From Tubulanus polymorphus (Eukaryota > Animalia > Nemertea), in the NCBI RefSeq assembly GCF_964204645.1, contig NC_134028.1, forward strand, positions 12,819,263 to 12,883,262: 64,000 bases of DNA, in the 5' to 3' direction. This document shows positions 1-59,650 of this stretch, piece by piece; position 1 is the first letter of the stretch; every line of letters begins with the position of its first letter. Below the pieces are notes generated by a model, which saw only the letters and a program-made list of their open reading frames with translations, was not told where the DNA came from and made no database searches. Position numbers and translations under genes: made by a program.

Positions 1-213
1 AGGAATATATTTTTGTTTTTCTAAATAATCAATAGTTAAATTAGATAAAGTAACTGCTAATGTTAATTTTAAAATATCATTTATATCAAATCTATCAACA
101 TTAACACTTCCCATTTTGAATACTTTTTTTAATACCATTGAATAACCAACAGTTCCAACTGATAGTAATGCGCCATTATATAATCCAGTTATTATCCACT
201 TATTATCACTCAT
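1..213 (-). CDS. Small two-helix membrane protein of Polinton/adintovirus type (3' end outside window; not in ORF track)
   Basis: ATG at 213 (TAAATG) opens MSDNKWIITGLLYNGALLSVGTVGYSMVLKKVFKMGSVNVDRFDINDILKLTLAVTLSNLTIDYLEKQKYIP to the window edge. Resembles recalled small adintovirus proteins ending DYLxKQKxIP. Confidence 0.65.
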   Translation of the reverse strand, partial: MSDNKWIITGLYNGALLSVGTVGYSMVLKKVFKMGSVNVDRFDINDILKLTLAVTLSNLTIDYLEKQKYIP

Positions 214-216
214 TTA

Positions 217-570
217 TTAATCAAAAAAATTACTATCTTCAAAATATTTAGTTATCTTAGTGATGATTATTTCAACATTTATTTCATTACTAGTTTCATT
301 TGTATATATTTCAATTATTATTTTTTTAATATCATCGATGATAAAATCTTCATCTAATTCATAAAATCTTAAAGATTCTCTAATTAAATTAGTAATCTTT
401 TCTACATTAAAAGTTTCTTTATCTATTGTTTTTTCATACTTAAATGTTGTTTCATTAGAAAATGCAATATTTTTGATTTGTGTAATTACATCATTAATGT
501 TAAATTTCATTTCTTTCTCACGTTTAAAATCAAATCCAAAACATATACTCGGTCCAACAGTTATATTCAT
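217..570 (-). CDS. Hypothetical viral protein, 117 aa
   Basis: Open ORF with TAAATG start, tightly packed between neighbouring viral ORFs; no recognised domain. Confidence 0.55.
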   Translation of the reverse strand: MNITVGPSICFGFDFKREKEMKFNINDVITQIKNIAFSNETTFKYEKTIDKETFNVEKITNLIRESLRFYELDEDFIIDDIKKIIIEIYTNETSNEINVEIIITKITKYFEDSNFFD

Positions 571-586
571 TTATATAATGAAAAAA

Positions 587-1372
587 TTACTCTCTACATC
601 TTATAACTAATTCATATATCACAGGAAAGTTATTCAAATCAATTAAATATCCATTATGATTTCTTATTTCTAATTTAAAATTATTGAAATGTGGAATACA
701 AGGTTTAAAATCACATTCAGCTAAATTATAATTTATTTGCGTTCCAAATTGTTTAACATTCTTCAATGGTAAAATGTTTAATATACTAGAATTACAAGTT
801 ATATCTTTAGTTGCTTCAAATGTTTTTGTTGGGTCAATCAAATTGCAATAAATATAAAAATGCGTAAAAGGTATTAAATTTGATATACCGTATATGTTTC
901 CAACAATATGTTTATCTGGAGGAATTCCTAACAGTTTAGCAAAAGGTTTTTTTACCACGTAAGCATGTCTTCTTATCATAAATAAAACAGGTTTATAATA
1001 CTCATCATCAAACTTTACTTTAATTTTATTAGAGCTCTCACTTTTTATGAATTTAATATTAAATTTAGAATCACTACCTAACATAATCCGAGCTTTTCTA
1101 TTAATTTCTTGCTCTAATGTTTCTAAATTATATAATCCTGGTGTAATCATAAGTTGAAAATTTTTATTTCTAAGTTTATCAAGAATAAAAAAGCTATGTT
1201 CATCAGTTTTATCCGATATATTGTAAAATGAGTTACATAAACTTATATTTACTAATTTTAAATCTACACAATTCTTAAATTCTATATCTAATTGAACTAG
1301 TAAATTATGTGATTTATAATTTGTAAGTTTTCTAGAATCAACAAATATTCTGTATTCTTTTAATTCTACCAT
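587..1372 (-). CDS. Putative minor capsid (penton, single jelly-roll) protein
   Basis: Motifs IFVDSR, LKLVNISLCNSFYNIS, ITPGLYNLETL, AKLLG, YIYCNLID, SILNILP and FKLEIRNHNGYLIDLN..YEL match the pattern of Polinton/PLV penton proteins. Intact, 261 aa. Confidence 0.7.
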   Translation of the reverse strand: MVELKEYRIFVDSRKLTNYKSHNLLVQLDIEFKNCVDLKLVNISLCNSFYNISDKTDEHSFFILDKLRNKNFQLMITPGLYNLETLEQEINRKARIMLGSDSKFNIKFIKSESSNKIKVKFDDEYYKPVLFMIRRHAYVVKKPFAKLLGIPPDKHIVGNIYGISNLIPFTHFYIYCNLIDPTKTFEATKDITCNSSILNILPLKNVKQFGTQINYNLAECDFKPCIPHFNNFKLEIRNHNGYLIDLNNFPVIYELVIRCRE

Positions 1373-1440
1373 TATTTATAACATAAAAAAATTACCGCTC
1401 ATCACTAAAAATTAATTTTAATAAAATTTTCCCTTAATAA

Positions 1441-4400
1441 ATGGATGAGAAGATACCATGTGAAATTTGTGGTGAACTTCTAAGAAAAAGTAATATGGCT
1501 TGACATATGAAAAAACATGATGTAAATTATAAACCCCCTAAACTAAACTGTCCAAAATGTAATAAATTATTCTCAAGAAATTATGTTAAAAAACATTCAG
1601 AGAAGTGTAAAATTAATGGCGCAACGGCTAATGTTGATAGTAATGAAAGTAATAGTAATTCTGCTGAAGTTGAACCTGAAGTTATTTGGAAAAGACCTTT
1701 CTTATTCTATGATAAGGATAATATAAAAGATCATTTCTGTGAGCCTTGTCGAATGAAATATAACCCTGAAAATATAGAAGATTGGGAGAATCATCAATTT
1801 CGTAAAGCACATATAGATAAAATTTCTAATAAATTTGAAACTGAATTCAATGAAAGAAAAAATAATTTATTAGAAAAAATAAAATATGAGAAAACGTTAC
1901 CAGATAATAAAGAAACAGTTAGAAAAACAATATAATGAATTAACAAGAAAAACATATTATTAGGCCAGCCGTAGGCTGAGCCTATTACTTTACAAATGGA
2001 GCGAATTTAAATGACATGGTTTCCACACAAAAGGCTCTTTTGCTTGCCAAGTGAGGGCATATTCGAACAAATCACGTATTTAAGCGTAATCCATTCTCGG
2101 AATCGTAGCGAGCAGAATTTTGAAATAGGGTCTCATAAAAATGTTTTCTGCATTTTTCACGAAAGTTAAATCGGGAAAATTTCAATTTTTATCAGCCAAT
2201 CAGGAAGTTGTGTCTTCCCTGTGATTGGTTTATCTGAAAATATCAGCAGCTGTTCACGTGAATTATCGCGATTTCATTACTGGCGCTTTTGTGCATGACT
2301 TCATGTATCAACACGCGACAATACTTCCGCGTTCGCTACGTGTTCGCTGATTGGCCCATTTACTGGGAAATTCCACAGAAGCCTAATGTGGTTTGTTACA
2401 AGCGCTGTGATTGGTTCGACCCGATTCTGGCATGGCTTTAGCTTAGTGGGTTCGAATCCCTTGACGGGTGAAGATGATGGATCCTATCAATATCTATTGA
2501 AACTAATAAGTTTCCCGGTTGGGCAGCCGCGGATATCTACCGGAAGTATTCCGGTTCGATATTTCGAGGTTTCTTTGAATTTTGGAGTGATATTGAAATC
2601 CGGTAAATACCAGCGGTAGATTGTGAAAACCCATTGCATGATATTTGTATTACTTAATCAACGAAAAGCGTCGGGGCCGCGCCAGGAGTTTTCGTGATTC
2701 AAGTAGCGCAATAGCCTACTTCTTCGTGTTCGTCCACCTCAATTTTCACTCCGCCGATCTCTGACACGGCTCTGTCCCCGTCGGCGCTGTGATTGCACAT
2801 TCGTACCACCAAAATTTTTTATTTCTATATCAGGGAGGTCTGGAGAATAAAAAAGTCAAAATTTGGATATCACATAGGCCTGATTTCATCGAATAAGTCG
2901 ACCATGGTCGTTCCGTTTCCGTACTTATTACCACCTAAAACCGTCTGAACAATTTTGTCACAACCAACATTTCGTTTACAGAAATCAGGTGTTCACGTGA
3001 ACCCGCGGTATCGTCTACTGTTTTACTTCCTGGTTTTATTTTAAGATTTAAAATTGTATTTACAAGATCGATTTCTATGAAATCTTTAGTTGATTTGGTG
3101 TTTGGGAGGAATTTTTATTTGCTCTACAGAAAATTCATCCTTGACAATTGCGCAAGGTTCGCGAAAAAAAAGGTTTTACCAAATCGGGTGTATGACCTTG
3201 ATATGCTAATTAGCCATGTGCCCGAATTGCAAATTCAATCAAATTTTATTCTGCCAAAAAATGTTAAATACAATTCGCTTTCCGAGAGTTAATGGTATGC
3301 TGCATGGAACAAAGTTGTTTTGAGATGGGTCTTGAAGCTATTTAGGTCGAGAGATAACCATCTAGATAGTTCGTGAGAGTTCCAAAGTTTTGAAGACGCT
3401 TCAAGGTAATGTCTTGATATTTGGTTTATACGTGTATCTATCCTAGACACATCTTCAGGCCAAAAACTGGCCCTGTCAGATTCAAGATGGCGCCAAAATC
3501 AGCACTTTTTACACATTTTTGAAGTTTTCGAGGGAAATTTTGAAGACACTTTTATCAATAACCTTGATCATTCGTATATATTTATATCCCCCGAGGGCCC
3601 ATCGGCATGAGAAAAATTGGGTCGATCGGACTCAAGATGGCCGTACTGTAACCTTTTTTGTTCCCAAAAATGTCAATTTTGGCCTGAATTCTGAGTACTG
3701 TAGCTTTCTAATGGTGTGCCATGTTTCATTGCAATTTGTAATGGGTATTCTTTGGAAAGGGATCTTTTATATCCGAGAGGGTATTTTTGACCAGGCAATT
3801 ATGACGCACTTGCTGGCCATCTTGGGGTCATCAGTACTCATTCGTAGGTGGAAAAAAAGTTTTTCCACATCATAATTGATACTTAAGCATATTTTGCTAC
3901 TATAATCAATTGGAAAGTTGTAGCTCATGACATGTTCTATGATCGAGATGAGTTTCAAGCTCATTGGTTTTTGTTTATGGCCACCAGGGGGCGTTGAACA
4001 ATACAATAACTTAGTATTTCTATATTACATTCATACCTATGCATATTTTGCTACCACAATCAATCGGAAAGTTGTAGCTCATGACATGGTCTATGATCTT
4101 GGTGAGTTTCAAGCTCATTGGTTTTTGTATATGGCCACCAGGGGCGTTGAACAATACAATAACTTAGTATTTCTATATTACATTCGTTCCTGCTGTCTGT
4201 GTTAACACACGATTTTACTATGTAAATGATATTGAGCAGGGAGTGTATATTGATAAATATAACCCACAGATTACATCATTTATAAAAAGCAAATCTGACA
4301 GGCTGGCCATTGTGCCCCTTGGGGCTCTTGTTGTAAATATCATAAATTGATTATTACAACAAGTAATTCAAATCTACATAATAGAACAATAAAACATAAA

Positions 4401-5135
4401 GAAAACGTAAGAAAATACCAGGAGCTTAATGAAGATCTATTACCAATAAATTATAAACAAAAATGCCCACAATGTAATTACGCGACCTTAAGACAAGAAG
4501 GTACTGTGTTATTTTGTGTTGATTGTGGATGGCAAAAGAATTTATGGGGTGAAGAAAAAACTAGAAATTTTCTCATAGATCCAAAATTAAATTATCTAGA
4601 TGAAATTTTTAAAATATTTTCTATAAAAGATCATACACCAGAATATATGCAATGGCTTGAAAAAATGAAAATAATAGAAAATAAAAATGGTGAAATAACT
4701 AAAAAAGATATTATAAAAACAATTATTCCGTCAACATTTAACACAAAACAAAAGAAAATGTATTTATATTTATTATTTAACGATTATTATGAAAAACCTA
4801 AATTAACAGAAGAAGATATGGAAAATATAAAAAAAATATTCAAACAAATATTAATGTATCATTTGGAAAATAGAATAACAGATTCAATTAATTATGAATT
4901 CTTTTTAAATAAGATTGTAAATTATTTAAACATAGATATTATAATTCCATTTGACGAATTAACAAACGAAAAGAAACAAAGGGAGCGAGATGAAATGTGG
5001 CGCAAGATAGAACTTTATTTAAATAAGAAAAATGAAATGGAAGAAGAACCTAAACAAATTATACAAGAACAATTAAATGAAAATGAAGAAGCCAATAGTG
5101 ATTTCGATTATGATGATATTGATTTTATGTTTTAA
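1441..5135 (+). pseudogene. C2H2 zinc finger + VLTF3-like (poxvirus A2 family late transcription factor) fusion gene, split by a HINE insertion
   Basis: ATG 1441: MDEKIPCEICGELLRKSNMA*HMKKH (TGA at 1501), then CPKC..H..C and FCEPC..H..AH fingers, with a frameshift near 1880. Removing 1958-4331 joins ..TRKTY|CKYHKLIITTSNSNLHNRTIKH in frame with ORF 4347-5135. That ORF has CPQC..CVDCG and a VLTF3-like C-terminus, INYEFFLNKI..QRERDEMWRKI. Confidence 0.72.
1958..4331 (+). mobile_element. Non-autonomous Helentron-associated (HINE/DINE-1-like) element with nested repeats
   Basis: 5' subTIR GGCCAGCC plus adjacent inverted copy (taggccagccgtaggctgagcc); 3' subTIR GGCTGGCC followed by hairpin GCCCC-TT-GGGGC and TCTTGT. 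Inserted at a TT site with no TSD (empty site acatat|tgtaaa). Confidence 0.75.
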
Positions 5136-8100
5136 TGACCATAAGGTAATGTTTTTATACCATCATCTGAAATATGTCTTTTATCATCAAATGGATTTAA
5201 ACTAGTTTTTTCAACTTCATTAATGTACATCTCATGATCTTCTGATCTTAAACAATTCATTTTGTGTTTCATTACAATTGAGTTATATAAACACTTTATA
5301 TAATCTTGAAATTCTATATGTTTATCAACCACATGTTTTGTTATTCCTTTTAACTTTTTAGCTTCATGATCTTTTGTTCTGTAACTATACATTTTACTTC
5401 TTATCCCAACAAATTCAATCATTTCATCACCCCCTAATTCATCTTTAAACTTACCAGGAATCTTTTTATTATCATTGCTAAATAGTTCATGATCTTTGGG
5501 ATAATTGCTAAAATCAAAATGATGTTTTAATGTTTTTAAGTCTTTTGTTATATCATTTGTCTTGATTTTTAGTATGTAGGCGTCGGTATTTTTTTGGATT
5601 AATGGGAACCCAGAATTGAATGTTCCATCATCTGTTGATAAATCATAAACATAGTCAGTTGGGTTATATATTTCAAATAAATCTTCTTCTGTTAACTCAT
5701 TTTCTACATGTCTTAAATTAAAGCAATTTGGTTTAGATTTAATCAATCCAATATTCATATTAAATCCTAATGAACTGCATAATATATTCAATCCTGATAT
5801 AGCAACTTTTCCTTTTTGAGCTAAAGATATTGTTTTGCGGTTTTTGAAACTTTTTGAACTATCTGCAGCATAGAATCCAATGAATAACCATTTTCTTAAA
5901 TCATTTTTTGCATTTAATACATAATCTGGAACTATCTTTTCTTTTGTTGAAGTATTACTTTTAACTATTGCATGAATATAGAATTCATCATTATATTTTA
6001 TAGCAAAATCTTTAGGATTATTTACAAGTATTCTATAAACTGGTGTTGATTTCATAACATCCATGATTTTAAATGTTTTATTTGGATAAACTTCTTCACA
6101 GAATTTCTTTATTCTTTCTAATAATTTTAAGTCTTGATTGCATAAATACCAGCAATATTGAGTGCGATTAACATAATTATACACACCTGCTGAACCATCA
6201 CCCATGAAAAATCCTTTGATAAAATATTCTTTTTCTTCTAATGTTTCGGGTTCTATATTATAAATATTATCAATAATTTCATCAAATGACATATGATTCA
6301 TATTCTTTAGAAAAATCTTTTTATGTAATAATTCATCTCCAAATTTTTATATCAGTTGGTTTTATTTCATCGCCATTTCGTTTAATTAAACTATGATCTT
6401 CTGTAACATCTACAAATCCTAATTCAGTTCTAACTCTATAGATTTTCTTATTTGTTTTATGCCTCATAATATTCTTTAATTTTTTCCATCCATTTCTTGT
6501 CCAAACATCCATTAAACCATTTATTTGTATTAATTCTTTTTCTCCATATGAAATATAACATTCATTTTGTTTTGGAATTATTTCTGAAATTCTTCTTATC
6601 AATATTTTATCATTACATTTTAATAATATTGGGGTGTCAGCTGTTACAGAATCAATATATAATATTTCAATATGCTTTTCCCCAAAAAGTGGTTGTAAAA
6701 CATTATAATAAAAATCATACATTAATAATTTTGATACTTCTAAAACAGTTGAGCCAATAAATATAGGTTTATTAAATTTCATTGACGTTCTTTTTAATTC
6801 AACTGCTGTTAAATAATCTTCAAATCTTTTATTTCCTAAATGTCTAGGACTTGATTGTAAATGTCTTAATCTTTGAGAATTATTTACTAATTCAATATTA
6901 TTTCTATTTCTAATATTTTCGCATGTTTTACCATAAAAACTATTATTCATTAATTTGAAGAAATCTTTTTCAAAATCTGTTTTTGATATGGTTCTCTGTT
7001 GAGTATTGAAATCTATATATTTTTCTATCCACTTCGATTGATTAAATTCAATATATCTATGTACTTTCTTTTATTTCATTCCTTGTTTTAGATAAAATTT
7101 TAACATTCTATGAACGATATAATTGTATTTATTATTTTGAGTAAGTATTAATTTTTCTGTAAAAACATGATCTTTCGGTTTTATTTTCTTCTGGTATTCA
7201 CTTAAATAACTATCATCTACAGTTAAATGTTCTGGGGAATAAGGTAAGTTTCTTGTTTTAAACTTTATATTTTCAGGATATTCTAAATCAACTACAAAGA
7301 AATAACCAATTGGTGCTTCATCTTCTAAACTCATAATTGCGCTTTCCCAATTAGTTTTATCATCATTTTCAATTTCTGTTAATATAAAATTTTTATATGG
7401 TTGAGGTTGCATCATTGCCCAACCATATAAATTATTGGCGTCAATATATAATAATTTATATTCATCATTTGCTTTAAAATATCTATCTCCCATAACACCA
7501 CTAATTCCACCTCTAATTGATTTTTCAAATGATAAAACCATATCTGGTTCTTTTAATAAATCTAATTCTACATTTGTATATTTTAAACCACATTGCCAGG
7601 TTAAACCAGGACTAGAGTAGCAATAACAAGGATCAACATTAAAATGATTCAAATTAACCTCTCTCAATTTTTCAAATATGTCAGCCAATATCATAACATC
7701 TGATTTTAAATATAAATCAACTAATTCGCCATGATTTTTCATCTTAAAATGGTTACAAATATTTAATGTTCTATTAAACACTTCATCTTTCACATACTCC
7801 TCTTTTAATTGATCATAAAATTGATCTTTTAATAATTCTGTTACATTAAAATCATCATGTGTTTTAATTGCGCCTTTATATCTCAATAATTTAAAATCTT
7901 GTTCATTTGGATAATAACATCGAGTTCTAACAAAATCATTATCAACTAAACTTTTTGATAAATTATCTAATGAACTTGCTAGAAATCTATAAGAATCTAA
8001 AAATCTAATGCAACCAAATTGAAATGAAATATAATTTTCAGATGTTTTAGCTAATAGTTTAAAATCATATTTTCTTACATTTACACCATTCATAGCATTA

Positions 8101-9930
8101 TATTCTTCTATTTCTTGATTAATTGTGCCCAATTTCCTTGATAATTGTTTTATAAATAGATGGGTATCATAGCCTGTTAAATTATGAAATAATATTGGTA
8201 CGAAATTAACTTTCTTAGCTTGTAAATTGCAATCTTCATGAGCAGCTCCACGATATTTTGAATTTAAATGATTATGATCTCTAACTTTTTTAGCAAATGA
8301 ATAAAAACGTTTTTCACAATAACAACAATGAGTTGCATAATTAAAATCAATTTCATCTTTTTTCATAACTATTCTATTATTTTTGTTTAATGATTTTGCA
8401 AAATCACTTTCTAATTCAATCATTTTGTCACAAAAATCATTAACTACATCTTCACCTCTAAAAGAAATATATTGACTTTCATATAATTCAGGATAATTTG
8501 ATTTTATATAAATTCCATAAGCAGCAGCTCTTTGATGAACTTTTTTAATTGTATTTATAATTGGTGGGTCTTGTATTGTGTCTTCACTTAATTCATTTCC
8601 TTTATCCATTGATTTTAATAATTGCTTTTTGTTATATATTTCTTTTCTATCTTGATCAGTTAATTCTTTATTCAACGATTCAAAATCCCCATAAATTACA
8701 AATGGAACAATATTCTTAAATTTATGATTAGTAAATTTCAAATTATAATCTTTTTCTGTTGGCATTATTAATTTACAAAAATCTTTATTATCACATAATT
8801 CTTTATGTTTTAATAATGTATTCTCAGTCATAAATTTAGATAAACATTTTCTACATAGATGAATTTTATGATGATGATCACTTTCTGTTCTAAAGAATAA
8901 ATCAATTTGTTTTAACCACATATAATGTTCATTTTCATCTTTTTTGTAATATAACAAATCTATAGCATTTTCATCATCATAATATTCTGTTAAATATAAA
9001 GCTTCCAATGTATAATCTTTAATATTTTCACCTTTTGTCTTTGGTAATTGCATTAATTCGAATACATTTATTTTTAAATTATTAACTTTTTCTATTTTAG
9101 AAATCATTTTTATAGTTACTGGATATTGATCAATTTTATATAATGTTTCATATTTCCGATAATCTGTTATTCTACAAACATTTTCCTGTGTTGGATGTAA
9201 GCAACTAATAATTGACCATAGAAAACATTTATTATCTTCATTTTGAATATTTATTACTGCCTTTGTTGTAAATGGTAATTTAATATAAGATGATGCTTTA
9301 ATATCCTTTTCTGTTGTAAAGTTTGAATCATTTTTAAACATTTTATTACTTTTTGATGTTTTATTTCTTTTTGTATTATAAACATTTAAATCTAAATATA
9401 TAATTTCATTCAATGTTAAGCCAGAACCCTCAAAATATCTTTCTTCAATATGACGTTTAAATTCATTAAATATTTTTTCTAACTTCTCTTTTATTTGTGT
9501 TTTTGAAATTATTTCTTCAGAGTGTGTTTGAATATTATAACTCATTTTTTCTTCTGACTTTATAAAACTTACTTTCCCAGAGATACTAATTTTTGGATAT
9601 TCAACATCTGTTATCAAATCTAGTATTTTTTCTATTATTTCATTAAATTTACTATAATCTTCTATTGTTGTTCCTTTGAAAAATCTAAATATAATAGCTG
9701 CAGGACCAATTTTACTATGTAATGTTTCTAAAATTTCAATTGTATCTTTTATTTCTAGTGAATCAATATAATTTCTAACATTTTCCATGTAAGGTTTATT
9801 TGAAATGGATTTAGTTTTTGAAGTTGGTTTTTTTACTTTTTGAGGTTTATCATCGAAATAATCTTTTCCTAAAACATTATTACTCAAATTTTGATGGTGT
9901 TTTTGTGATTCGAGATGTCTATTATAATTC
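5132..9930 (-). pseudogene. polB: Protein-primed family B DNA polymerase (pPolB, Polinton type) with an intein; one nonsense codon and frameshifts
   Basis: ExoI YGDFES, ExoII FHNLTGYD, ExoIII YLKSDV, motif A YIDANNLYGWAM, motif B KLMNNSFYGK, motif C YID|TD, C-terminal GKFKDE..FVGIRSKMYS..KLKG..FDDKR. In-frame TAA at 7071-7073 (GMK*KKVHRYIEF); +1 frameshift at ~6342. Confidence 0.95.
5588..6650 (-). mobile_element. Intein with LAGLIDADG homing endonuclease inserted in PolB motif C (pol-c site)
   Basis: Starts S (SVTADTP) right after YID. Block B VDVTEDHSL; LAGLIDADG motifs YFIKGFFMGDGS and LFIGFYAADS; block F YVYDLST; ends IQKN followed by +1 Thr (TDA). Length 1063 nt = 354 codons plus one extra base. 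Confidence 0.93.
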
Positions 9931-9934
9931 CTTT

Positions 9935-9981
9935 TTGATGGGTTTCGTCGTCAGACGAACCCATCTATGGCATCGTTGTCA

Positions 9982-10013
<32 letters not shown>

Positions 10014-11152
10014 GATGTTTCTTTATGACACAATTTAAGCTGTTTGTGTGGACCCACAATTCTGTAATTTCACACAGGTATTCTCTACTTGATGTAGATG
10101 GTGCAGCTTGGTTTATATTTGATTCCGATGTTTATAAGTGCTCTAATTTGGTTAAAAGATAATTAACGTTACTCGCTAGTTCAAGCCGCTGTATAGCGCG
10201 TTGCTACGACGACGCTCGATCAACATACTGGTACTCGCTGTGTAATACTGAACACGTATATACCTGTAGATATTGATCGTACTAGCACCGGTTTTAGATA
10301 ACGCGCGCGCGCTGATCGGTCTTAACACTTCTCGGAACTGCTGTGCTAAATGCTGAGAGGCCGAATCTATGCGCAATCATTTATTGGGCTCGTCACATTT
10401 GATAGTGAATGGATAAATAACCGGTGTCAATGACGGTCGCTACTCCCCATCAGTATAACTCATCAGTATAAGAAATAATTCTTTCAAGTTTTTTTTTCAA
10501 TCCCCGAACGTGGTTGTTACTATGTTGACCTCGCCGTTTTATAAGCTTACCGATGATTCTTCTAGTATTTTCAGGGTCACAAGACATGACGAAGTTGCAA
10601 AGTTTTGTACAAATTTCACGAAACAAACAATTATTTAGGCGGCACCTGATCTATTGATTAATTATGATAAATAATGTTTATTTCATTAAAAATTTGTTTT
10701 ATTCAAACACTACTTTCATCGCACATAGCGTGATCGGTAGGCCCTACTATTCTACGGTAGGCCATGGACTCTCATGTGGTAGGCCTATTACAAATGATAC
10801 AATCCGCGTGTCCGTGAATAAGTGACACGTGGTGGGGCGGGTTGTGAGGAGCATCGAAACTAATCCGTCACAAATAATAGATAGAAAACAATACCTTAAG
10901 AGGTTAACTTTTATTAACATCATTACCAAATCAAAACCTGCACATCCTATCATAAATAGAAATTCTAAGAATTTATTTCAAAGAATAATAAATTACGTCT
11001 AAATATTGGGATTCGAACTCGTAGCATCGATTCAGGTGCCTTTCCCAAAGCGGGTATCCCGCGGGGAAAACCCATTACTATTTATATCGAGAATCGCCTT
11101 TTTGACAGCGGGTTCGGTGAATGAAACAGAAACAATTACACAGAAACCCATC
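9935..11152 (+). mobile_element. DINE-1/HINE-like insertion in the 5' part of polB
   Basis: 5' GATGGGTTTC..GAACCCATC inverted pair, a (GTCT)n/GTCC microsatellite at ~9983-10010, and 3' subTIR GAAACCCATC at ~11142. Confidence 0.6.
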
Positions 11153-11409
11153 ATGGAAAGTTTCTTTCTGGTTACTATAAATTCATTACAAACTTCACAT
11201 TTTATTTCATCCACATTCATATTTTCTAATCTTTCTTTTCTTTCATTGGAATTTTCTGGAGTTTCAAAATCTATTACATTTTTTATATGATTTGCAGTTT
11301 TTTCATGTCGTGATTTTTGGGATTTATCGATGTATTTTTTACAATATTGGCAATAATATTGATTTTTATTAACATTATTGTTTTCTGGCTGGTGTTCATT
11401 TTCCCCCAT
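11153..11409 (-). pseudogene. Zinc-finger N-terminal segment, probably the true 5' end of polB
   Basis: TAAATG start; YYCQYCKKYIDKSQKSRHEKTANH and KCEVC fingers. Same strand as polB, separated from it only by the 9935-11152 insertion. Confidence 0.55.
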
Positions 11410-11448
11410 TTATTAGGGGAAAAAATTACTTGTGGTGATGAGTGGTGT

Positions 11449-11736
11449 CTCGACCGCTCGACCTCTGATCTGAAAGCCCACTTTTCCAATTACTGGTAGG
11501 CCTATATGTCTTTTCATACCAGAGGTCGAGAGGTCGAGCTCATAAAAATAAAAATAAATTCTCACAGGCTTGAATTCATTTTTATTTTTACTCACTCGCC
11601 CCTCAACCTCTGATATGAAACAACATATACCCTATTACTCTAATAATTTCATATATATGAACATTATATAAATGAATATCATATATATGAAAATCAATTA
11701 TATAGATTTCGAATAAAAAAATATGTAAAATAAATG
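11449..11736. promoter_or_regulatory. Inverted-repeat (hairpin) region between divergent viral genes
   Basis: Arms 11503-11538 / 11595-11629, inner stem 11543-11561 / 11572-11590, extra arm copy 11449-11475. Homologous to 62583-62800. Confidence 0.55.
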
Positions 11737-12279
11737 GTAGAATTAAAAGAATATTAAAAGTAACGAGTAATAAACGAGTTGAAGAAAATATTAATTTCCA
11801 TTAAGAAATTACTAATAAATGAAAGAACAGATACTACATTTCAAAGATATTTACATGAATTAGAAAAATATTTTAGGCCGACAATTAAACATTTTATTCC
11901 TATTCAAGATTTGATTAGAACTGCACGTTTTCGTTTTCAAGTGAGTAATATTACTGAATTAAAGTTTAAAAATTATTATCTAATGATTGAGTTATCGAAT
12001 GAAAAAGATAAAATCTTATTCAATACAATAATTCCAAAATTCACAACATTTAATGAAATAGATAAACATTTGATAATTACAGATGAATTACAATCACTTT
12101 TATATAATGAAAAATCAGATAAATCATTATTTATACACCTACGATATTGCCCTTTCAGAGAATGCTATGTAATGTTTTCAGAGTACAAGAAAAAAGGTTT
12201 ATCCCTGACATTCCAAATGAAAAATCATTTAAAGATACAGGAACTCAATGTAACGAGCAATGTAATGATCATTATTTAA
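11734..12279 (+). pseudogene. Degenerate hypothetical viral ORF
   Basis: TAAATG start, MVELKEY*K*, in frame with ORF 11779-12279. Confidence 0.45.
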
Positions 12280-12399
12280 AGAGTATTACAATGAATCCAT
12301 AAGATAAATATCATATTCTTTACAGAGCACTAGAATAACAATAGGCCCTATAATTCAACTAGAATCCTTAAGTTGTACAGTTTTCGTACTTAGCATTTT

Positions 12400-15360
12400 C
12401 AACCACAGGGTTGTGAGTTTTGCTATCTGTAGCACGCTGGGGATCAATATTTAAATCAGAGTCAGAGTCTGATGAAGTCTCATGAATTTCCTCGTAGGGC
12501 TGATTCATTTCAGGTACCCGTCGGTTTTACCTCTTTACGGGGCTTATTTTGATCTGTCACCTTTGGAAATGGAATAACACCACAAGGCAATAATAAACTC
12601 CATCTTCCCGTTTCACTGAATATACGACATCTCCAAGAGATTTGGTGACCAAATTAACATCAGAACGCCAATGATCAGCTATTTTATGTTTGCCCTTTAG
12701 GCCAACATTACGCAAGAGAACACGTTCACCGTTAGTCCAAACACTTTCTTTCACTCTCTTGTCATAGCGTGCCTTGTTTCGGTCGTTAGACTTATCAGCG
12801 TGACTCAGCGCCGATTTATATGCTTGATCTAGAGATGTCTTTAGGTCTTTCGCATATTTAGAATAGTCTGTGTGCTCGCCTTTACCGGCAGGATGAATGT
12901 TGAAATACCAATCAACCAACAGTCTTGGTTGTCTACCAAACATGAACTCGAAAGGTGAGTGACCTTTAGCATCATTTCGAGTACAGTTATAAGCGTGACT
13001 TAAGAACTTCAAATGCTTAGACCAACTGTCATTGATCTCCTGATCTTGAGTACCAATCATATCCAGTAGTGTTCTGTTGAAGCGTTCACACTGCCCATTG
13101 GAAGGGCTGTGCCATGGACTCGACAGTGACAACCTAATGCCTGTCATTTTCCTAGGAAATCCGAAAGAGTCTTTCCAGGAAAGAGTCTTTCCATAAAACT
13201 TCAGCCACCTGCTTCGTAGTTTCGTTTTTCGTCGCCATCGCTCTGGAATAACGGGTGAAGTGGTCTGTTATTACGAGTACATGTGTTCTCCCGGTCTTAT
13301 CCGGGTCTACACCGAGGAAATTAATACCAACCAAATCCATGGGTCAGGTGGACTGAATATGTAACAGTGGGGCTGATCTTGGGTCTCGTGTTTTCTGCAA
13401 GATATAGTTTCTGCAGTTGCCAATGTGTTTGCTTATGTCGGACTCCATATAAGGCCAGTAGAAACGATTGCGTGCAAGGTCTAAGCTTCGTTCAGTTGCA
13501 AAGTGACCGATATCGTCGTGTATGCCTTGCATGGCCTTTTCCCTGAATTTCTCTGGTACTACCAATCTATGTACCTTCCTACCTCTAAAGACTGATGTTT
13601 TATACAATACATCACTATCAAAGTAAGTTGTGCCTCAGTTTCTTAGCATATTCTGAATGACCTTCGGACATTTACGCCATTTTCTCCTGGGAAGGGGTAG
13701 GGATTCATATTCTAGAATGTTGATGAAATTCCCAATGACTTGGTCATCTCTCTGGGAGACTTTCAGTTCTTCAACCGATAGCGACTGTATCTCATCTTGG
13801 GCAATAATTTCCAAGTCCTGTACTGAATTCAATGTGGCGCTCAAACATTGGGCTATTGGAACGTTCTGAGCTTCCACGACAGCTTGACAGTAGTCTTGAG
13901 CGGATTGGAGTATGGCGACTTCAAGTGCGGGTCTTACCCGATTGACTAATGATGAGATTCTTTCCTCCTGTTCAGTATCTTGGCTGTCCATATCGGGCCT
14001 TCTTTAAAGTAGATCTGCATCGACATTGTGACGCCCAGCACGATATACTATGTCAAAGTCATAGTTGGTTAAAGCGGCTAGCCATCTGTGGCCATCTGTG
14101 ACCAACTAAACGGAGGTCAATATATAAGTTAATGGATTATTATGCGTCAATATCTGGAATTTCTTCGCTTCAGAGAGATAGTCATGAAACTTGTTCTTGA
14201 CTGCCCAGAACCGGGCAAGGAATTCTCGTTTATGTACAGGGTAATTCTTTTCGCTGCTAGACAGGCTTCGGCTAGCATATGCTACTGGGCGCAATGTCCC
14301 TTCCTCTCTCTGATACAGTGCCCAGTGTTCTCCACGGCTCAAATTTATAGCAGGGCGCAGTAAGAAATATTAAACTTATTCTGCATCAACGATGCAAGCA
14401 CATTGCGGGGGTTTGTGGGTCCTCCCCCAAGAAATTTTTTTAATTTAACGCCTCCTCAGAGTGTCTGAGACAGAAAAGCATACTGGAATTCGTGAAAAGT
14501 CACATGTGGTTTTAATGCTGGGACGCCAAATATCACAATATATCTATGGACGAAAACTGGGCAAGTGGCTCAGTTACTATGATGGTTGTCTATTTTTAGA
14601 GAAACTGACAATGACCTACGCACTGGAGAGAATGAATGCATGAACAAACACTTACATGCAATTTTTTAAGAATTTCCTAGAAGTCACCGCAAATGTTTTG
14701 AAATTCATAGCTCAGCCAACTTTTACTCGTAACTAGGTGACTAAAAATATATCTAATTCAACCCACAACTAGAAATCTCATTAAGTTGGGTGCTATTCTG
14801 ATTCCAACTGGAATGTGTACCACAACTTTTCCCCTAACTATATCATAGACAGATATGAATTAGGTCAATAACACTTAAAGTTCAACTGAGAACTGTAATA
14901 ATCTAACCAGAGCTGGATTGCTGAAAAAAGGATGTGATAAAGATGTAGGTTGCTGTTTTTTGAGTTTGTCTCGTTTCCTCTACAATCTCACCTGACAGTA
15001 TTCCTGCCACAAGATAGGGGTGGACTATCTTGCTTGTCCCGAAGAATACTTCAAGATACAAATTACAATTTGGTTAAGCCGATTAGGCCAATTTGAGCCA
15101 AATCGAGCCCCACGTTGGGCGCCAAAAATGTAACGCACTTCCAGATGGTATTGGCAACGTGCGTGCGTGGGGCTAGAAACTCAAAATAAACTTACTGAGA
15201 ACGAACTCAAATCACAACGAACTCTAAAAATAAAATACAATATATATACGTTTATTAAGATGATAAGTAATAGAGCAATGAAATATTATCTAAAACCAAT
15301 CACTAAACCGAACCAAATTTCACCCAAGTTATACCAATCCCAATCATATTGTGTTACCAA
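12400..15360 (-). mobile_element. Degenerate Ty3/Gypsy LTR retrotransposon (RNase H, integrase, PBS, part of the 5' LTR)
   Basis: PVAYASRSLSSSEKNY..EFLA (RNase H), HDDIGH..FYWP (integrase zinc finger), TDHFTRY and NGQCERFNRTL (integrase core); multiple stops. Confidence 0.88.
15107..15124 (-). promoter_or_regulatory. Primer-binding site, tRNA-Lys(CTT)
   Basis: Minus strand reads ..GTTACA TTTT TGGCGCCCAACGTGGGGC: the LTR end followed by the 18-nt Lys1,2 PBS. Confidence 0.85.
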
Positions 15361-30200: not shown

Positions 30201-33200
30201 TGGTATAAAGCCAAAGATATTTTCGCGCCGCGAAGTCATGCAACAATGAATGTCAGTAGATTGCCAAAAAGTCTCGTATTTGTTGAATATTGTAAGCAAG
30301 CTTATCTGTATATCCTGTTGTTACGGTTTATGGTCGAGTTAGTTCACGGTTTATTACTCACATTATTTGTACCTTATATAAATACAGTATTGGGAATAAA
30401 TTCTATATCATTTGTATCTGCGATATACGTGTGTGTGTTATTGGTATTTGGTGCGCCCGTTTAAGGGCCTGATCGTCGCAGAGTTTTCTACATTTTGGTC
30501 CCTCGAGTCCTGGAGCCTGGAAGTACGTGATGGCAGAAGACGGACGGCAAAGCGAAGGCTACAAAGGCCTTGTGCGGAAGAGGACAGCCCAGCGGGGACA
30601 AGTCACGATGATTTTGAATGACGCAGATTCGGTGGTCAACTCAAGAACAACTCAGGCGCCGGACATCGCGAAACTCGAACGATTTGTGCAGCGACTCGAG
30701 ATCAAGATCACGCTTCTGACTGACATAAATGAAGAAATGTTGGTGATGATAAAAGATGACAGCGTCTACATGCAAGTTTCGAATGAAGCAGAAGAGGCCA
30801 TTTCGAATGCCACTGATCGTAAGTTGTTTTATGAACAATATTTGAAAAATGCGACGTTAACCGCTACTAAAGTTAGAACTGAAGGATTTCAGAAATCCAC
30901 ACTTCCGACGCTTAAATTGCCCACGTTTACTGGGAATCTGCTTGAATGGTCTACCTTTTGGGGGTTGTTTGAATCAACAGTGCATAATAATTCAGCGTTT
31001 TCTAACATTGAGAAATATAGTTATTTGCTCGGTCAAATTAGTGGTGACGCTAGAAGTTGTATTGACCGTCTTCCTATGACTTCAGAAAACTATGATAGTG
31101 CCGTTGAATTATTACAAAATCGTTTTGGTCAGACGCACCGTTTGTCAAAAGCATATTTGCAGGCTTTAACTGAATTGAATCCGCCAACAGCTGAAGTTTC
31201 GTCATTAAGGCATTTTTATGATAGTTCTGAAACGTATATTCGACATCTCGGTTCAATTGGTATTTATACTGAATCCTACGGCGTGATGCTTGTTCCAGCT
31301 ATGTTGGACAAGTTACCTTACGATGTTAAAATGTCTATGGCAATTATGTGTAATAAACCTGATAGTGATTGGTGTTTATCTGAGCTCAGTGAAGCTTTAC
31401 TTGTTCAAATTCAATTAAAGGAATCATGCATGTCACCAGAAACGAACGCGCCTATTCAATCGTTGCATTTAAATATCAATTCAAAACAATCTGTTAATTC
31501 GAAACCCGTCAGGAATGTTACTTGAAACTGTGTGTACTGTTGTAAATCTCATTTGCCATCAGATTGTTTTTATGTTACCGACGTTAGGAAGAGAAAGGAC
31601 ATCGTTCAGAAGGCAGGCATATGTTTTAATTGCCTTGGAAAGCATAGAGTGAGTAATTGTCGGTCAGAAGTTTTATGTAAGTTTTGCAAAAAACGACACC
31701 ACAGTAGTTTGTGTTTTGCCGTATCCCGCATGGGGCCTGGTACCGGAAATCAGGCTGACATGAGCTTTAGTGAACCGGGTAGAGTTAAGCAAAGAAGATT
31801 AATCGTATCTAATTCAGGAACTCAAACTAATTCAGTGGTTGAAAGTGGAACCTGTCAATCAAACCGAAATATATCCTTGATAGAATTTGAAACCACAGCT
31901 GTAACCACTAATGCAAAGTTATTAGATACTGTTATGTTAAAAACTGCGGTGACGGAAGTTTCCGGTACTGATAAAACAATCATTGCTAATTTGCTTTTTG
32001 ACGATGGGGCGCAACGGACGTTTATTACGTCTCAATTAGCCAAACATTTAGGGCTTCCAATCACTAGGAAAGAGACAGTAAGCATGTCTGTTTTTGGATC
32101 TGATAAACGTAGTGTACATCATTTGCCTATATCTCGAATCACAGAAGTACCATGCTTTCATTTCACAGGCGTGGATTATCTGGGGCCTTTGTTCGTAAGA
32201 TCGAAAAGTGGAGATTATGTGAAAACACACGTTTGTTTGTTTACATGCGCGGTGAGCCGTGCAGTTCATTTGGAGCTTGTGTCAGATCTTACTACGGAAC
32301 AATTTATATTAGCATTTAAGAGATTTGTGTCACGTACCTAGACAGCTCATTTCTGATAATGCATCTACGTTCACTTGTGCTAATGATATTCTGATCCGCA
32401 TTTTTTCTGCAGTAGAATTTTCGACATATTCATCCCAACAAGGGATTATTTGGAAATTCATTCCAAAACGTGCGCCGTGGCACGGCGGATTTTATGAACG
32501 ATTAGTATCTTTGGTGAAATCATCAATTTATAAGGTGCTAGGTAGAACCTCCGTGACATTTGATGAGTTGCATACTTTAGTTACGCAGATTGAAAGTCGA
32601 TTAAAAGACCGTCCAATTACGTATATATCTGATGATGTACGCAACCCGGAACCTCTGACTCCGTCCATGCTCCTTTGTGGACACCGTCTTACTTCTGTTC
32701 TGGTTGCAGATTTTGATAATACTGATCCAGACTTTCGTGTTGATATTGAGAAATTTGTGAAAAGATATAATTATTTGGATACATTGATTACACAATTTTG
32801 GAATAGATGGAAAGGTGAATTTGTGTTAAGTTTACGTGAGTTTCACCGTACTACGGGCCATAATTGTTGTGATATTAAGGTCGGTTCAGTAGTTCAAATT
32901 CACGATAGCGGTCCTCGTTTAAGGTGGCGTCTAGGTGTAGTTACTAAATTACATCTGGGAAATGATGGCCACGTGAGATCCGCATCTCTTAAAACATCAA
33001 CCGGATTTACGAATAGAGCTATAAGTTGTTTGTATCGGTTAGAGGTTTGCGCTAAGGAACCCGTAATAAGTTCTTCAGTGAGTGATGCTCCAGAATCAAC
33101 ACGTCCGAAAAGAGCAGCGGCAGTTGCAGCAGAAGCAAAAATTCGTCAACTTTCGCGCCGGGCGTAGGAGTCGGATGATGATTAATTGCGCTCTTGAAAT

Positions 33201-36200
33201 ATTTATAATACTTGCTGTTTAAATCGAATTTAATTATTGTATGTATATCTGTATTTTTATTTGAGGTAAACTTGAATGGTGTAAGAAAATGAAATTGTTA
33301 TATCAAATTTGAGATTTATATATTTTGCGGCGGGAGAAATGTTGAATATTGTAAGCAAGCTTATCTCTATATCCTGTTGTTACGGTTTACGGTCGAGTTA
33401 GTTCACGGTTTATTACTCACATTATTTGTACCTTATATAAATACAGTATTGGGAATAAATTCTATGTCATTTGTATCTGCGATATACGTGTGTGTGTTAT
33501 TGGTATTTGGTGCGCCCGTTTAAGGGCCCGATCGTCGCAGAGTTTTCTACAGTATTATCATTTTTCATTTCTAATCAAAACCTTTTTATGACCCTTTTGA
33601 ATGAGACTTTTTGGCAATCATCCAATACAGTGTAAAATAGATACAAAAACTATATCCATAAAAGATGCTTTATTTTTATCTGTGCTGGTCCTTTTGAGAT
33701 ACCGGTATTAGGCTACCTACTACCAGAACTGACTGAGCTAGGCCACCAGTCTGCCAAAATAAGTTGAAATAGACTGATTACTTGTGATTTCATGAAATTT
33801 TCTAAATTTCTACTTTTTCAGATTGAATTGAACGATATCCCTCTCTTGACTGATGCAGATTTTTCGCGGTTAGGTGTAACGGCAGTGGGAGACCGCCTGA
33901 GACTTCGACATAAGTGTCGAAGTACGGAACATGGTAATTATTATGAAAATATAGGACTGTGGCCTTTTTGGAGCGTGATCCATCCATGCACCTTTAAATG
34001 TTAAGTGAATTTTGTATGGCTTATTTGAATAAACACAGGTATTTGTATCTTTTGCCTGTACATACGACAATTTTTCTTCATAGAGTGGGATAGCACAAGT
34101 TCTAGCAGTATTAATGGCAGCGCAGGCATACTCAATAGATTAAGGACTTCACTCAAAAAGAATTCAAAAGCTACATCCAAGCTCAACAAGAAAGGAAGTA
34201 CCGGTCCTGAATCGAAACTAGAGAATAAAAACGCATTTAAGAATTCTCGTCGCATTAAAGTTTGTTGGAAGCACTACAATTGTTCCAAGAAATGCTTTGA
34301 ACTTGTGCCCCAGTCGAAAGGTGGCGGGTCACATCCCATCGATGTTGATAAGAGTTTGACAAAAACGGAGCTACATAGAATTTGTTGCGAACTATTTCTT
34401 CCATCTGGTAAATCAATAGCTAAGCAGTTGCGTCTCAAAGACTTAGATATTTTCTTGGCAAATTTCACTGGTATGGAATTGCCTGATACGCTTTCATCAG
34501 GAGAGCAGTTTACAGTGAATGGTTACATCAGTCAGCATTGTTCTTTAACACAAGTGCCTAGAATATACTTGCACACAAAGGTAAGTTGCATTTTCCGGCC
34601 CAATTTGGACATTATGTACTTTGTCCTATAAGCTAAAATTTTGTTTTTCTCGGAATATTCAGAATAAAGATTCGGATGATATGGACGATTCAACCCAACA
34701 AACGACAAGATCCGATGAACGTGCATCGGAATCACATGGTAGAACGCTTGGTAATCGAGTCCCTGAAGATGAACCGGTGTTACCGGTTGCCGCTACACAG
34801 GAAGCCGATATTTCAGAATTTCTTCAAACACTTGAAGCGCCGGACACTCCAACAATCCAGTTTCGGTTACCTGTCAACATAGCCAGTAACTATGATCTGA
34901 CACTGCTGCATGATATTCCAGATATCGATGTATTTATCCCACCAGAAGAACTTGTTCTTGTCATAAGAAGGTCGCTCATTGTTCACGATATGCTTTTAGC
35001 ATTTAACGACCAGAATATACTGAAAAGAAATATCACTATCCGTTTGGTTTTGCCAAATGGTGAGGTTGAGGCAGGTGAGGGAGTAGGGGTTTTTGCTGAT
35101 GCACTAACTGATTTTTGGGAACAATTCAAGAAAGAGATGGGCGGGAATTCACAAATGGTGCCACAGTTACGCCATGACTATGGCGTAGATACGTGGCAAG
35201 CAGTTGCCAAAATCATAGTATCGGGCTATAGAGCTACCGGGTATTTCCCAGTCTTCATAGCACGGCCATTTCTGGAAATGTGTCTCTTTGGCAATGATGT
35301 AGGTGGCCTAGAGTTAGTTGATTCCTTCTTACATTACGTCTCACCATCTGAATCGATTGTGCTGAAGAGAGCAATAGAGAACTTTGATGATGAGCGCAAC
35401 GATTTTGATGAAATACTTGACATTTTGAATGGTTATGATTGCAAAAAGATCCCTACAAAACTTAATTTTCAAACTTTGATCCGCGAGATTAGCCATAAGG
35501 AAATAATTCAGAAGAGTATGTTCATAGTAGTCTGCATGAGGGAAGTATTTCGTAAAAATCTAATGTTGACTCATGAAGAGTTGTTAAAACTGTATGATGA
35601 TTTGAAACCGTCCCCTAGGAAAATAGTCAGTATCTTGACGTTCCCAGATGATATGAACAACCTACAGGTATCTGTATCGACGTTCTTGAAGCGTTATATT
35701 CGTTCTCTGGACGAAAAACAACAGCAAAAATTCTTACGCTTTTGCACGAGATCAGACCTATTCAATGAAGCGAAAATTAAGGTAATGTTTAACCAGACCC
35801 CCAATGGGTTAGCGAGAGCTCCTACAGGTAGAACATGTGCGAAGATACTTGAATTGCCGGATTCTTATGAATCATTCACTGAATTAAGGCAGGAATTTGA
35901 TGCAATATTAGCCAGCAATGTTTGGGTTATGGATGTCATTTAATTGTCACATTTAAACTTGTTATCATTTGCATTAATTCTGGAAAGTGCATGTTAATTT
36001 GCAAAAATATATTGCAGACCATTTAGTTTTCTTAAATTTGAACTACGTAACTACGAAATTTTAATTTCACTGAACAATATGGATTGTCGTCATTGCACAT
36101 TGCGTTTTAACGAATCTTGAAAGTTGTTGAACTTTAATGTTTGTGTAGCTGAATGAGCTAATCAGTTTATCATTTTATGTTGAATTATTTTAACCTCGCA

Positions 36201-57049: not shown

Positions 57050-59650
57050 TCTGGAACCACTGTGCAGATCAATGATTAGGACGGCTTGAGATAGGAGGAA
57101 CATGAGGTTGAACTGCAACATTGTCAGGAGCAGAAATATGATGTGGTTCAGCAATGTGTGGCTCAGTAATGACATCATCATCAGGCTCATACCCGGAAGG
57201 ATCTTTACGAGTACTAACAGGACGGAAATGGCTAACATTCCTCGCCTTGATTTCATTGCCACGCTGAGCAACAACCATAGAACCCTTTTTATCAATTACA
57301 TTAAAAGGATCCTTCTGGAAACTCTGGAACCTTGGAGTACACTTTCCAAGATTAACCACATCTTTCATTAACACTTTATCACCTATATCTATAGGACTTT
57401 TCCTAATGTTCCTTCTATCTTCAGCGTACATTTTCATTTTGTCTTTAGAAACTTCATCTTTTTTAACAAACATAACTAGAAGTAGGGTCAACATAAGACA
57501 ATTCAGGAAGCTTGACCTTCAAAGCTTGTCCATTTAAAATTGTGCCAGGAGGAATACCGGTTGATGAGTGAGGGGTAGCCCGGTAATTTCGTAAAAATGT
57601 AAACAATTCCTGTTTCCAGGGTTTTCCCTCAGCTGTTGCAGCTTTACAGACTTTACCAATAGTCTTCATAAAACGTTCTGCCATGCCATTGGCCTCTGGG
57701 TGATATGGCGTAATACGTTGGTGTTTAAAAGCAAGATGATTTGCAAACTGCTTAAAATCATGACTCTGAAAAGGAGTACCATTATCAGTTTTAAGTTTGA
57801 CCGGTGTTCCTCGTGATGCAAATACTTTATCTAAGACTGGCATAACCGTAGAAGCTGACAGAGATCTTATAATGAAATGGTATCTGCCTATGACGCTGAG
57901 CCACAGGGGGTACAGATTTATCGATGTGAAGGTGTACTTTGAAGTCCTTCAACTTACCAATACCCGTAAATACACCAGGGTATTTCTGCATATCCTCAGA
58001 AGACACTGAACTGCATGATTAGCTACCTTAAGAAACCCTAACTGACGACTGGCGTCTACACCTAACAAATTACCATATTTCCCTTTTGTGACGTAAAAAG
58101 TATCAATAATAGAAAATTCACCACATTTCACTCTAGAAACAAATTTGTACCACAGTGCTGATACTTGTGCCTCCATATGCATTCAGTTTATCTCTACATC
58201 CATCAAGCTTCATATCAAAATTGGATAAATAGTTTTGATGGATGAATATGTTTCTTCGTCGAGTATATTGCAGGTAGCACCACAGTCAGCAGTCATGAAA
58301 ATAGAACATTTGTCAAACTCAATCAGAAACTTGGGTGGTTTTTTCGTTACACTTCTACTATTAACATGATTTACAGCAAAAACATAGTCATCATCACTGG
58401 ACGCATTTTGTACCTCGTGTACTTGACGCTGTTTTTTCTGTTTACAAAATTTAGCAAAATGATTTTTGCTGTTACAATTATGACATATTTTCCCAAAAGC
58501 AGGACACTTTTTATATCCACCAAAATGTGGATAGGATTTACCAGTTAAAACACTTTTTAGTTTCAACTCTATTCCCATTTCTCGGGGGTTGTCTATGGCC
58601 CTGGCGTTGGCCAGCTGTTGACGATGACGGTGGTCTCCACTTAAGCTTATTTTGATGTGACACTTTGTTAACCTGCTGTCCTGGGACTAAGTCCTTTTCC
58701 ATCTCCGAGTTTTGTTCTTGCGCTAATTCGTTATTACGACCCATATCAAGAATGTTCTTGAGTATTAATCCGTCCGTTTTTAACCCATATTTTCGCAATT
58801 TGGAGTCACTAGTTGCTTGAATAATATGCGATCGCAACTCTCCTTCAACATCAGCGAATCCACAGCTTCCAGCGGCCTGACGTAACCTGGTGTGATAAGA
58901 ATCAATTTTTTCACCATCATTCTGCCTCAATCTGCGAAACACTGCACGTTCATATTCGATATTGACCTTAGGCTTAAAATAATTGGTCAAAGCGGTCTTT
59001 GCTTCGGCGTATGTTTCACCACGATCAGGAAGGTTTGTAAAAATATCAAAAGTTTTAGCCCCGACGGCGTAACAAAGCACGTTGACGATTGTCGACATCG
59101 ACGTTAACGGCAACTAAATAGTTCTCAAATCTACATAACCATTTATCCCATTTAGGTCCAAGGGCAGTTTCACTTTCACCTACCTCGGCATCAAAAGATG
59201 TCACCAAGTCAACACTCGGTACGGCCATGTTTCCAGTGTTGTTTACCTTAACGTATGAAATCACTAGGTAAAACCGGCGTATGTATTAATATATATACAG
59301 TTACTATACACTTGTATTTCATAGTACGATGCGCTCTATCTTCAACAGCATCGAGTGTCGCAGGCATTGCAACATACTGACGAGCCAACGTGGCAACACG
59401 TGTGTAACTCAATAAAATCGGATTTTACGTATTACGAGTAAATGAGACCGTCAAGACGAATCTCCCCGATCAGCAGCAATATATTCCCACACTGTTTACA
59501 AAGACACGGTCGCCAAATGTAATTTTCAAAAAAACCGACGACCGATTTAGCGAACAAACACAATGGAGTCCATTATTATAGCTCTACCTTTATTCTTCTA
59601 TAATAGGTGGCGACACGAGCCGATACAAGATATAAGTAGTGAATATTACA
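57050..59650 (-). mobile_element. Gypsy LTR retrotransposon, internally deleted (no RT), 3' LTR not seen
   Basis: Putative LTR 59518-59650 (TGTAAT..ATTACA); PBS TGGCGACCGTG at 59505-59515 (tRNA-Arg-like). Gag W.KW..RFENY, zinc knuckles CPAFGKICHNCNSKNHFAKFC, protease ADCGATCN, integrase TDNG..NGMAERFM..YRATPHSSTG. Confidence 0.85.

Follow-up and report, generated by a model that had tools for sequence, protein, structure and literature searches.

We analysed a 64-kb stretch of contig NC_134028.1 of the nemertean Tubulanus polymorphus (positions 12,819,263 to 12,883,262 of the forward strand; hereafter the window), which begins inside a Polinton-type element. The element carries a gene in which, judging from the sequences of this gene and its relatives, four N-terminal zinc fingers and a domain resembling the poxvirus late transcription factor A2/VLTF3 are joined in a real fusion. 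In addition, two classes of promoter-like motif at the gene starts of such elements mirror the intermediate and late promoters of vaccinia virus. The element (~1-12,300) is AT-rich (23-24% GC) and intronless, and it lies within 38% GC DNA holding retrotransposon remnants; it runs off the left edge of the window, so that only one of its ends is present. Its minus strand carries three small open reading frames (ORFs) and a DNA polymerase gene of family B, which is broken; the VLTF3-like gene, on the plus strand, converges with this polymerase gene tail to tail.

The region 4332-5135 is very probably homologous to poxvirus A2/VLTF3. Profile comparison with hhalign gave 96.3% over 180 columns against five entomopoxvirus-type VLTF3 proteins and 96.7% against 24 giant-virus VLTF3 proteins, 3 of which were checked with Pfam; the family profile itself contained no annotated VLTF3. 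The real profile match reached 30.7 bits, versus at most 6.7 bits in 2,000 shuffles. In both profile alignments all four Cys residues of the zinc ribbon were aligned to the A2L position. A phmmer search of 1.84 billion protein representatives returned 4 matches, one of them to a clear Pfam Pox_VLTF3 protein (E 1.2e-4). Structural models of 4332-5132 (pLDDT 70.5, from an alignment that included one VLTF3) and of the uninterrupted relative P0003 (pLDDT 62.6, from an alignment lacking annotated VLTF3) both had cowpox VLTF3 as the best named Foldseek match (E 3e-6 and 6.7e-6; TM 0.52/0.60 to the cowpox model), and a named VLTF3 or late factor accounted for 5/9 and 4/6 of the matches at E <= 0.001. 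The top Atlas matches were Pox_VLTF3 clusters at 0.81, which is taken as a lead only. The initial annotation had recognized a CxxC..CxxCG ribbon and a C-terminus typical of A2/VLTF3; the ribbon and the quoted motifs both lie in 4332-5135, and the assignment holds below the Pfam cut-off. The window protein (P0001) and its relatives P0002 and P0003 did not match PF04947 at E <= 1 in Pfam, PF08792 was unmatched for P0001, and P0001 had no VLTF3 match in Pfam, PHROGs or NCBIfam. By its sequence the region is thus filed as a divergent homologue and not as a member of the Pfam family.

Word-based protein searches found nothing for P0001, and with the family profile they gave only the two known homologues. 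A word search with a wider profile matched only entomopoxvirus VLTF3 and was circular, because P0005 was in that profile. Scans of viral contigs for the finger-VLTF3 family yielded no locus. Proteins P0004 and P0008 (281 aa) have VLTF3-like C-terminal helices, but in neither is there a ribbon at the matching place, and P0004 (E 1e-6) was kept out of the family for that reason. The phylogeny proposed in the initial annotation was run with 33 rows (3 element proteins, 6 entomopoxvirus proteins and 24 giant-virus proteins chosen from 120), and its scope excluded chordopox, asfar, irido, mriyavirus, polinton-like virus and coral sequences. Assignment of a donor from this tree was rejected, because long branches meet and composition is uneven.

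Within the gene, the zinc ribbon (CxxC-13-CxxCG; 4464-4529) aligned to the A2L-type ribbon and is followed by the helical VLTF3-like domain (4563-5042), predicted to have a cyclin-box-like fold, and by an acidic tail with the stop codon (5043-5135), which overlaps the end of the convergent polymerase gene. The best match among solved structures was a chain of a yeast RNA polymerase II (Pol II) initiation complex (Z 6.9, rmsd 3.5, 94 residues aligned), which we take to be TFIIB. TFIIB, cyclin and Rb chains stand together among the structure matches, and Foldseek against PDB gave no match at E <= 0.001. The likeness to TFIIB and cyclin-box proteins lies in an N-terminal ribbon and, after it, a helical bundle alignable to the first cyclin repeat, whereas the window protein has one repeat only, with 11% identity and a score that is not distinctive; it is a lead and not a membership. 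If it were true, VLTF3 would be a one-repeat TFIIB-like factor. The library searched contained no solved VLTF3 structure.

The fusion is carried by two uninterrupted relatives, P0002 (697 aa, locus L001) and P0003 (446 aa, locus L002), each encoding four fingers, ribbon and helical domain as a single reading frame. P0002 was matched in order by the two halves of the window gene (E 8e-16, 2e-17 and 6e-65), and its gene converges tail to tail with that of an intact polymerase of 1336 aa, the same position as that of the window gene. The expectation that the fingers belong with the VLTF3 part was therefore borne out by the relatives, which do not have two separate genes. The window copy itself is broken at three places, namely a stop codon at 1501-1503, a frame change near 1916 and the insert described below. 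The frame change follows from the fact that the frame from 1441 ends at 1933-1938 while the codons adjoining the insert are in a different frame. Removal of the insert, which the initial annotation expected to restore a single ORF from 1441, consequently leaves two breaks, although the insert and its empty site are real. Read evidence was taken from raw DNA run X6, of which ~12% was read. At 1501, 229 of 236 reads differed from the window, and a length difference at 1916 was present in 101/182 reads, so that the stop and the frame change look private to the window copy or to a minority of copies. The His codon quoted for the junction was private to the window copy as well, since 262/262 reads at 4341 differed. 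The longest bridge across the gene by a read or contig was 316 nt and none spanned all of it; an open frame in one copy of the window family is thus inferred and not seen, and the uninterrupted genes observed are those of the relatives at L001 and L002.

The insert (2.37 kb, ~1958/1960-4331; mapped as 1960-4331 without strand, the ends being uncertain by ~2 nt in a T/A run) is non-coding and splits finger 4. Its GC content is 39.5% within DNA of 23-24% GC. It has an 8-bp sub-terminal inverted repeat (1963 and 4301), a 3' hairpin, T-rich ends and internal 154-nt repeats, and relatives of it are present elsewhere in the window. The empty site was observed directly: 187 reads from 104 starts jump from 1959 to 4331 at a flank depth of ~250-265, and the depth within the insert is ~1,900-5,700. 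By its inverted repeat, hairpin, T-rich target and empty site, the insert is HINE-like. The HINE/DINE-1 non-autonomous Helentrons, as far as they are described in the available part of PMC4067079, likewise have no coding capacity, a sub-terminal inverted repeat, a 3' palindrome, central tandem repeats, T-rich ends and empty sites, but their inverted repeat is 12-15 bp compared with a perfect 8 bp here.

The four fingers are of mixed type. In the 5' part of the gene (1441-1959), the C2H2 finger 1 (~1459-1518; zf-C2H2 E 4e-4 for the 5' part, read with X at the stop) and the C2HC finger 2 (~1549-1608) are followed by a low-complexity linker, then by finger 3 (~1735-1812) and a helix; the remainder of finger 4, which is U1/matrin-like, occupies 4332-4400 (zf-U1 E 0.035). 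Fingers 1-2 resemble CTCF-type C2H2 fingers (E 1.6e-5), the family profile of finger 4 matched the RNA-binding ZFa (E 1.1e-5), and finger 3 of P0003 matched the double-stranded RNA-binding JAZ family (E 6.6e-6). Fingers 1-2 thus look DNA-type and fingers 3-4 look like RNA-type fingers of the U1/matrin/JAZ kind, all binding roles being read from sequence similarity. The proposal that the added fingers bind DNA is consistent with the first pair and is at odds with the second.

Promoter-like motifs were compared at true gene 5' ends (five in the window, two in L001 and one in L002); three starts of remnants and those of internal fragments were excluded. TAAATG was present at 7/8 gene starts of the three VLTF3-bearing elements, the eighth being TAAATAATG, and at 7/8 starts there is a T ten bases before TAAAT. 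The background was 20/344, 24/300 and 5/64 ATGs. For controls, 12 viral contigs were fetched through a shared polymerase motif, and no VLTF3 was detected in them by three profiles. TAAATG occurred at 6 of 111 ORF starts in these related polymerase-bearing loci (Fisher p 2e-7 versus 7/8, treating the elements as independent). L001 and L002, which are out of sample, gave 3/3 versus a background of ~8%, and TAAATG was found at 7/18 starts in an entomopoxvirus stretch. The pattern GTAATTTTTT-N-TAAAT occurred 4 times in 64 kb, always at gene starts; the pattern was drawn from these same sites, so that the expectation of 0.03 is optimistic. An A-rich block, TTTAATAAAA, stands exactly 24 nt before the ATG in 3/3 VLTF3-like genes and in none of the 5 other genes, which have a T-run instead. 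In the window, the predicted promoter of the VLTF3-like gene (1417-1443, plus strand) comprises this block, a short T-run and TAAATG overlapping the start codon, and is of the intermediate-like class. The T-run class was found on the minus strand with TAAATG before the polymerase gene (11408-11429), a 117-aa ORF (217-570; motif 569-590) and an ORF leaving the window (1-213; motif 212-233, inside the end of the upstream ORF), and with TAAAT before a 261-aa ORF (1374-1395).

These motifs can be compared with vaccinia, for which the part of PMC11980589 available describes late promoters with TAAAT(G) over the start codon and a T ten bases upstream, intermediate promoters that are A-rich upstream, and A2L as an intermediate gene. 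A comparable block lies 25 nt upstream of the ATG in a promoter oligonucleotide of G8R, which includes an artificial mismatch (PMC12917281, consulted in part). Like A2L, the VLTF3-like gene of the window stands behind an A-rich TAAATG promoter in the intermediate-gene style.

The promoter layout, which follows the poxvirus intermediate-to-late cascade, and the absence of a visible RNA polymerase gene favour a virophage-like cycle. There is about an even chance that, in intact elements, the finger-VLTF3 protein is the element's own late factor and would steer the RNA polymerase of a pox-like helper to TAAATG promoters. The helper's intermediate machinery would first read the A-rich promoter before the VLTF3 gene, and the product would then activate the T-run promoters, which stand in front of the polymerase and candidate capsid genes. 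The ribbon and the helical domain might work in a TFIIB-like manner and contact RNA polymerase, while fingers 1-2 might hold on to promoter DNA, so that the element's template is served before that of the helper, and fingers 3-4 might bind RNA. Such a life cycle would resemble that of Mavirus, a precedent in which every gene carries the late promoter of the helper (PMC6723459), with an animal as host and a pox-like virus as helper. The wider proposition, that an animal Polinton is the virophage of an undiscovered pox-like virus, with its own DNA-targeted late factor and a two-step intermediate-to-late promoter code that captures the helper's RNA polymerase, is a tentative one and falls somewhat short of an even chance. 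That the element encodes its own late transcription factor had already been suggested in the initial annotation; homology, fusion and poxvirus-type promoter motifs speak for it, whereas the window copy is broken and the fingers are only half DNA-type.

Several points weigh against this interpretation. No helper virus was found, and the promoters are predicted ones. The A-rich block also precedes two gene remnants (62803, plus strand; ~62050, minus strand), so it is not specific to VLTF3. The three VLTF3-bearing elements share ancestry, which means that the p value overstates their independence, and the control loci, some of them near-duplicates, are incomplete and have a higher GC content (26-41%). 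The VLTF3 tree does not place the family inside the poxviruses, and the Z score of the TFIIB match was tied with those of cyclins and an ORC subunit, below the tool's distinctive level. The left part of the element, beyond the window, might encode its own polymerase. Moreover, giant-virus relatives that have no polymerase keep VLTF2/VLTF3 and TFIIB, according to the accessible part of 10.64898/2026.08.29.747986, and VLTF3 can therefore probably work with a host polymerase.

The last point leads to the main alternative, in which host Pol II transcribes the element. The finger-VLTF3 protein would then be a nuclear, sequence-specific, TFIIB-like recruiter to the element's motifs, with its fingers replacing VLTF1/G8 and VLTF2/A1. 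This is possible but rather unlikely. The integration of the element in the host genome, the retention of VLTF3 by polymerase-less nucleocytoviricots, the classical C2H2 form of fingers 1-2, the first rank of TFIIB chains in the fold search and the lack of a known helper would all agree with it, but the start sites would not. An initiator overlapping the ATG leaves no leader, which fits slippage by the poxvirus polymerase and not scanning after Pol II transcription; TAAATG over the start codon would give a near-leaderless mRNA. At position -3 the element starts have T, which makes for a poor Kozak context, and the control elements mostly have A. The spacing of the motifs is vaccinia-like and not that of TATA geometry, the A-rich block being too near the ATG for a TATA box.

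Two further explanations are improbable, both to a similar degree. The first is a decoy or a repurposed protein, in which the VLTF3 domain jams the late machinery of the helper or the protein has become, through its fingers, a replication factor that binds RNA or termini; long branches in the VLTF3 tree, the position below the Pfam cut-off, the poor alignment of the segment between ribbon and C-terminal helices that is conserved in giant-virus VLTF3, and a U1 finger of the same kind in the polymerase are compatible with it, but three elements with just 36-47% identity have retained the ribbon and the C-terminal motifs, and matching promoters accompany the gene. The second is a self-sufficient cytoplasmic element with genes for a capping enzyme and a compact RNA polymerase in its left part, the polymerase being served by VLTF3, as the window starts inside the element and yeast linear virus-like elements have a polymerase of their own and produce transcripts with 5' poly(A) leaders (available parts of PMC6211774 and PMC6831550); against it, Polintons described to date in the literature available measure 15-20 kb and do not have such genes, and the visible 9-10 kb hold the polymerase, VLTF3 and small genes.

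The family-B DNA polymerase gene of Polinton type (5132-11409, minus strand) shares 69% identity with the intact L001 protein across 1225 columns and 31-37% with proteins of 1,200-1,360 aa from 10/12 of the small viral contigs; it shows putative PolB motifs and is a candidate for the protein-primed type. The intact L001 polymerase had no match to DNA_pol_B_2, PHROG or PDB entries. The N-terminal U1-type finger has E 8e-7. An intein (~5591-6650, minus strand; TIGR01445 E 1.1e-7, above the cut-off, and LAGLIDADG_3 E 3e-5) sits frame-broken in the catalytic DTD-type motif and is not present in the L001 polymerase. Inteins in the DNA polymerases of giant viruses presumably use this site as well, and that would be a hint that the two have shared cells. 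A second insert (~9975-11030; 38.6% GC, with a short tandem run) severs the 5' end with the U1-type finger (11032-11409, minus strand), and no further copy of it was found in the window. L001 and L002 contain only the right part of their elements.

The 261-aa ORF (587-1372, minus strand) is a candidate minor capsid protein by our own assignment, with DUF5901 at E 0.028 and an Atlas score of 0.98 to unnamed viral clusters, one of which has DUF5901 on 12% of its members. No gene for RNA polymerase, VLTF1 or VLTF2 was found among the window ORFs in the visible part of the element. The element is integrated and multi-copy in the animal genome, its flanks being retrotransposon and host-like DNA, and the raw DNA reads of it are 85-100% alike with many segregating differences. 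A related remnant at ~61500-62860 contains a stretch that matches the beginning of the 261-aa ORF at 86% and another that matches 11513-11702; its two gene starts are those behind the A-rich motif given above. The stretch 11500-11760 is palindromic, is partly common to L001 just before the end of the element there, and is possibly a terminus; a duplicate of the 261-aa ORF start follows it at 11734. Beyond the element in L001, 6400-6508 is presumably RhoGAP-exon-like, which suggests integration in an animal gene. In the window we take 30527-33167, 12557-14342, 57069-59113 and 34621-35943 to be, by their motifs, remnants of BEL/Pao-like and Gypsy-like retrotransposons and a HECT-like ORF without introns.

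For animal Polintons, the literature available to us reports no particle to date. VLTF3 in polintons has so far been noted as a curiosity with no mechanism, whereas in the present elements it is accompanied by matching promoters of poxvirus style, absent from related elements without it. The promoter code makes the mode of expression testable and predicts that pox-like helpers occur in hosts for which none is known. If this were true, copies of the element in the genome would be a sign that such viruses exist in this animal group and might defend the host. When VLTF3 is used as a giant-virus marker in genomes or metagenomes, such elements can give false calls.

The initial annotation noted that VLTF3 is not among the canonical Polinton core genes; VLTF3 genes in such elements have already been published. 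In the parts of the sources available, VLTF3 is reported in coral polintoviruses, citing Krupovic and Koonin 2016 (PMC11131425), in protist polinton-like viruses (PMC8502044) and in ~30% of two Zephyrvirus clusters (10.64898/2026.06.19.733378), while PMC11253617 calls it undetected outside Nucleocytoviricota. The coral and polinton-like genes resemble that of the window as accessory genes of Polinton-type elements; the available portions of their descriptions mention neither a zinc-finger fusion nor poxvirus-type promoters. The literature searched, with subscription journals outside it and sources seen in part, described no finger-VLTF3 fusion, no TAAATG promoters in animal Polintons and no TFIIB-like VLTF3. 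The gene class is known, and the finger fusion with its matching promoter code appears new. Compared with poxvirus A2L/VLTF3 (PF04947 and PF08792, including entomopoxvirus VLTF-3), the window protein has the same ribbon, helical domain, C-terminal motifs and predicted fold at ~25% identity, and adds four N-terminal zinc fingers and an acidic tail; unlike A2L, its gene resides in a small element that integrates and in which neither an RNA polymerase nor VLTF1 or VLTF2 is visible. The virophages Mavirus and Sputnik, as covered by the part of PMC6723459 available, have a helper-type late promoter before all (Mavirus) or most of their genes, and Mavirus integrates and has its own DNA polymerase. 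Their hosts are protists and their helpers are of mimivirus type, and the late factor is ascribed to the helper, whereas the element described here would bring its own.

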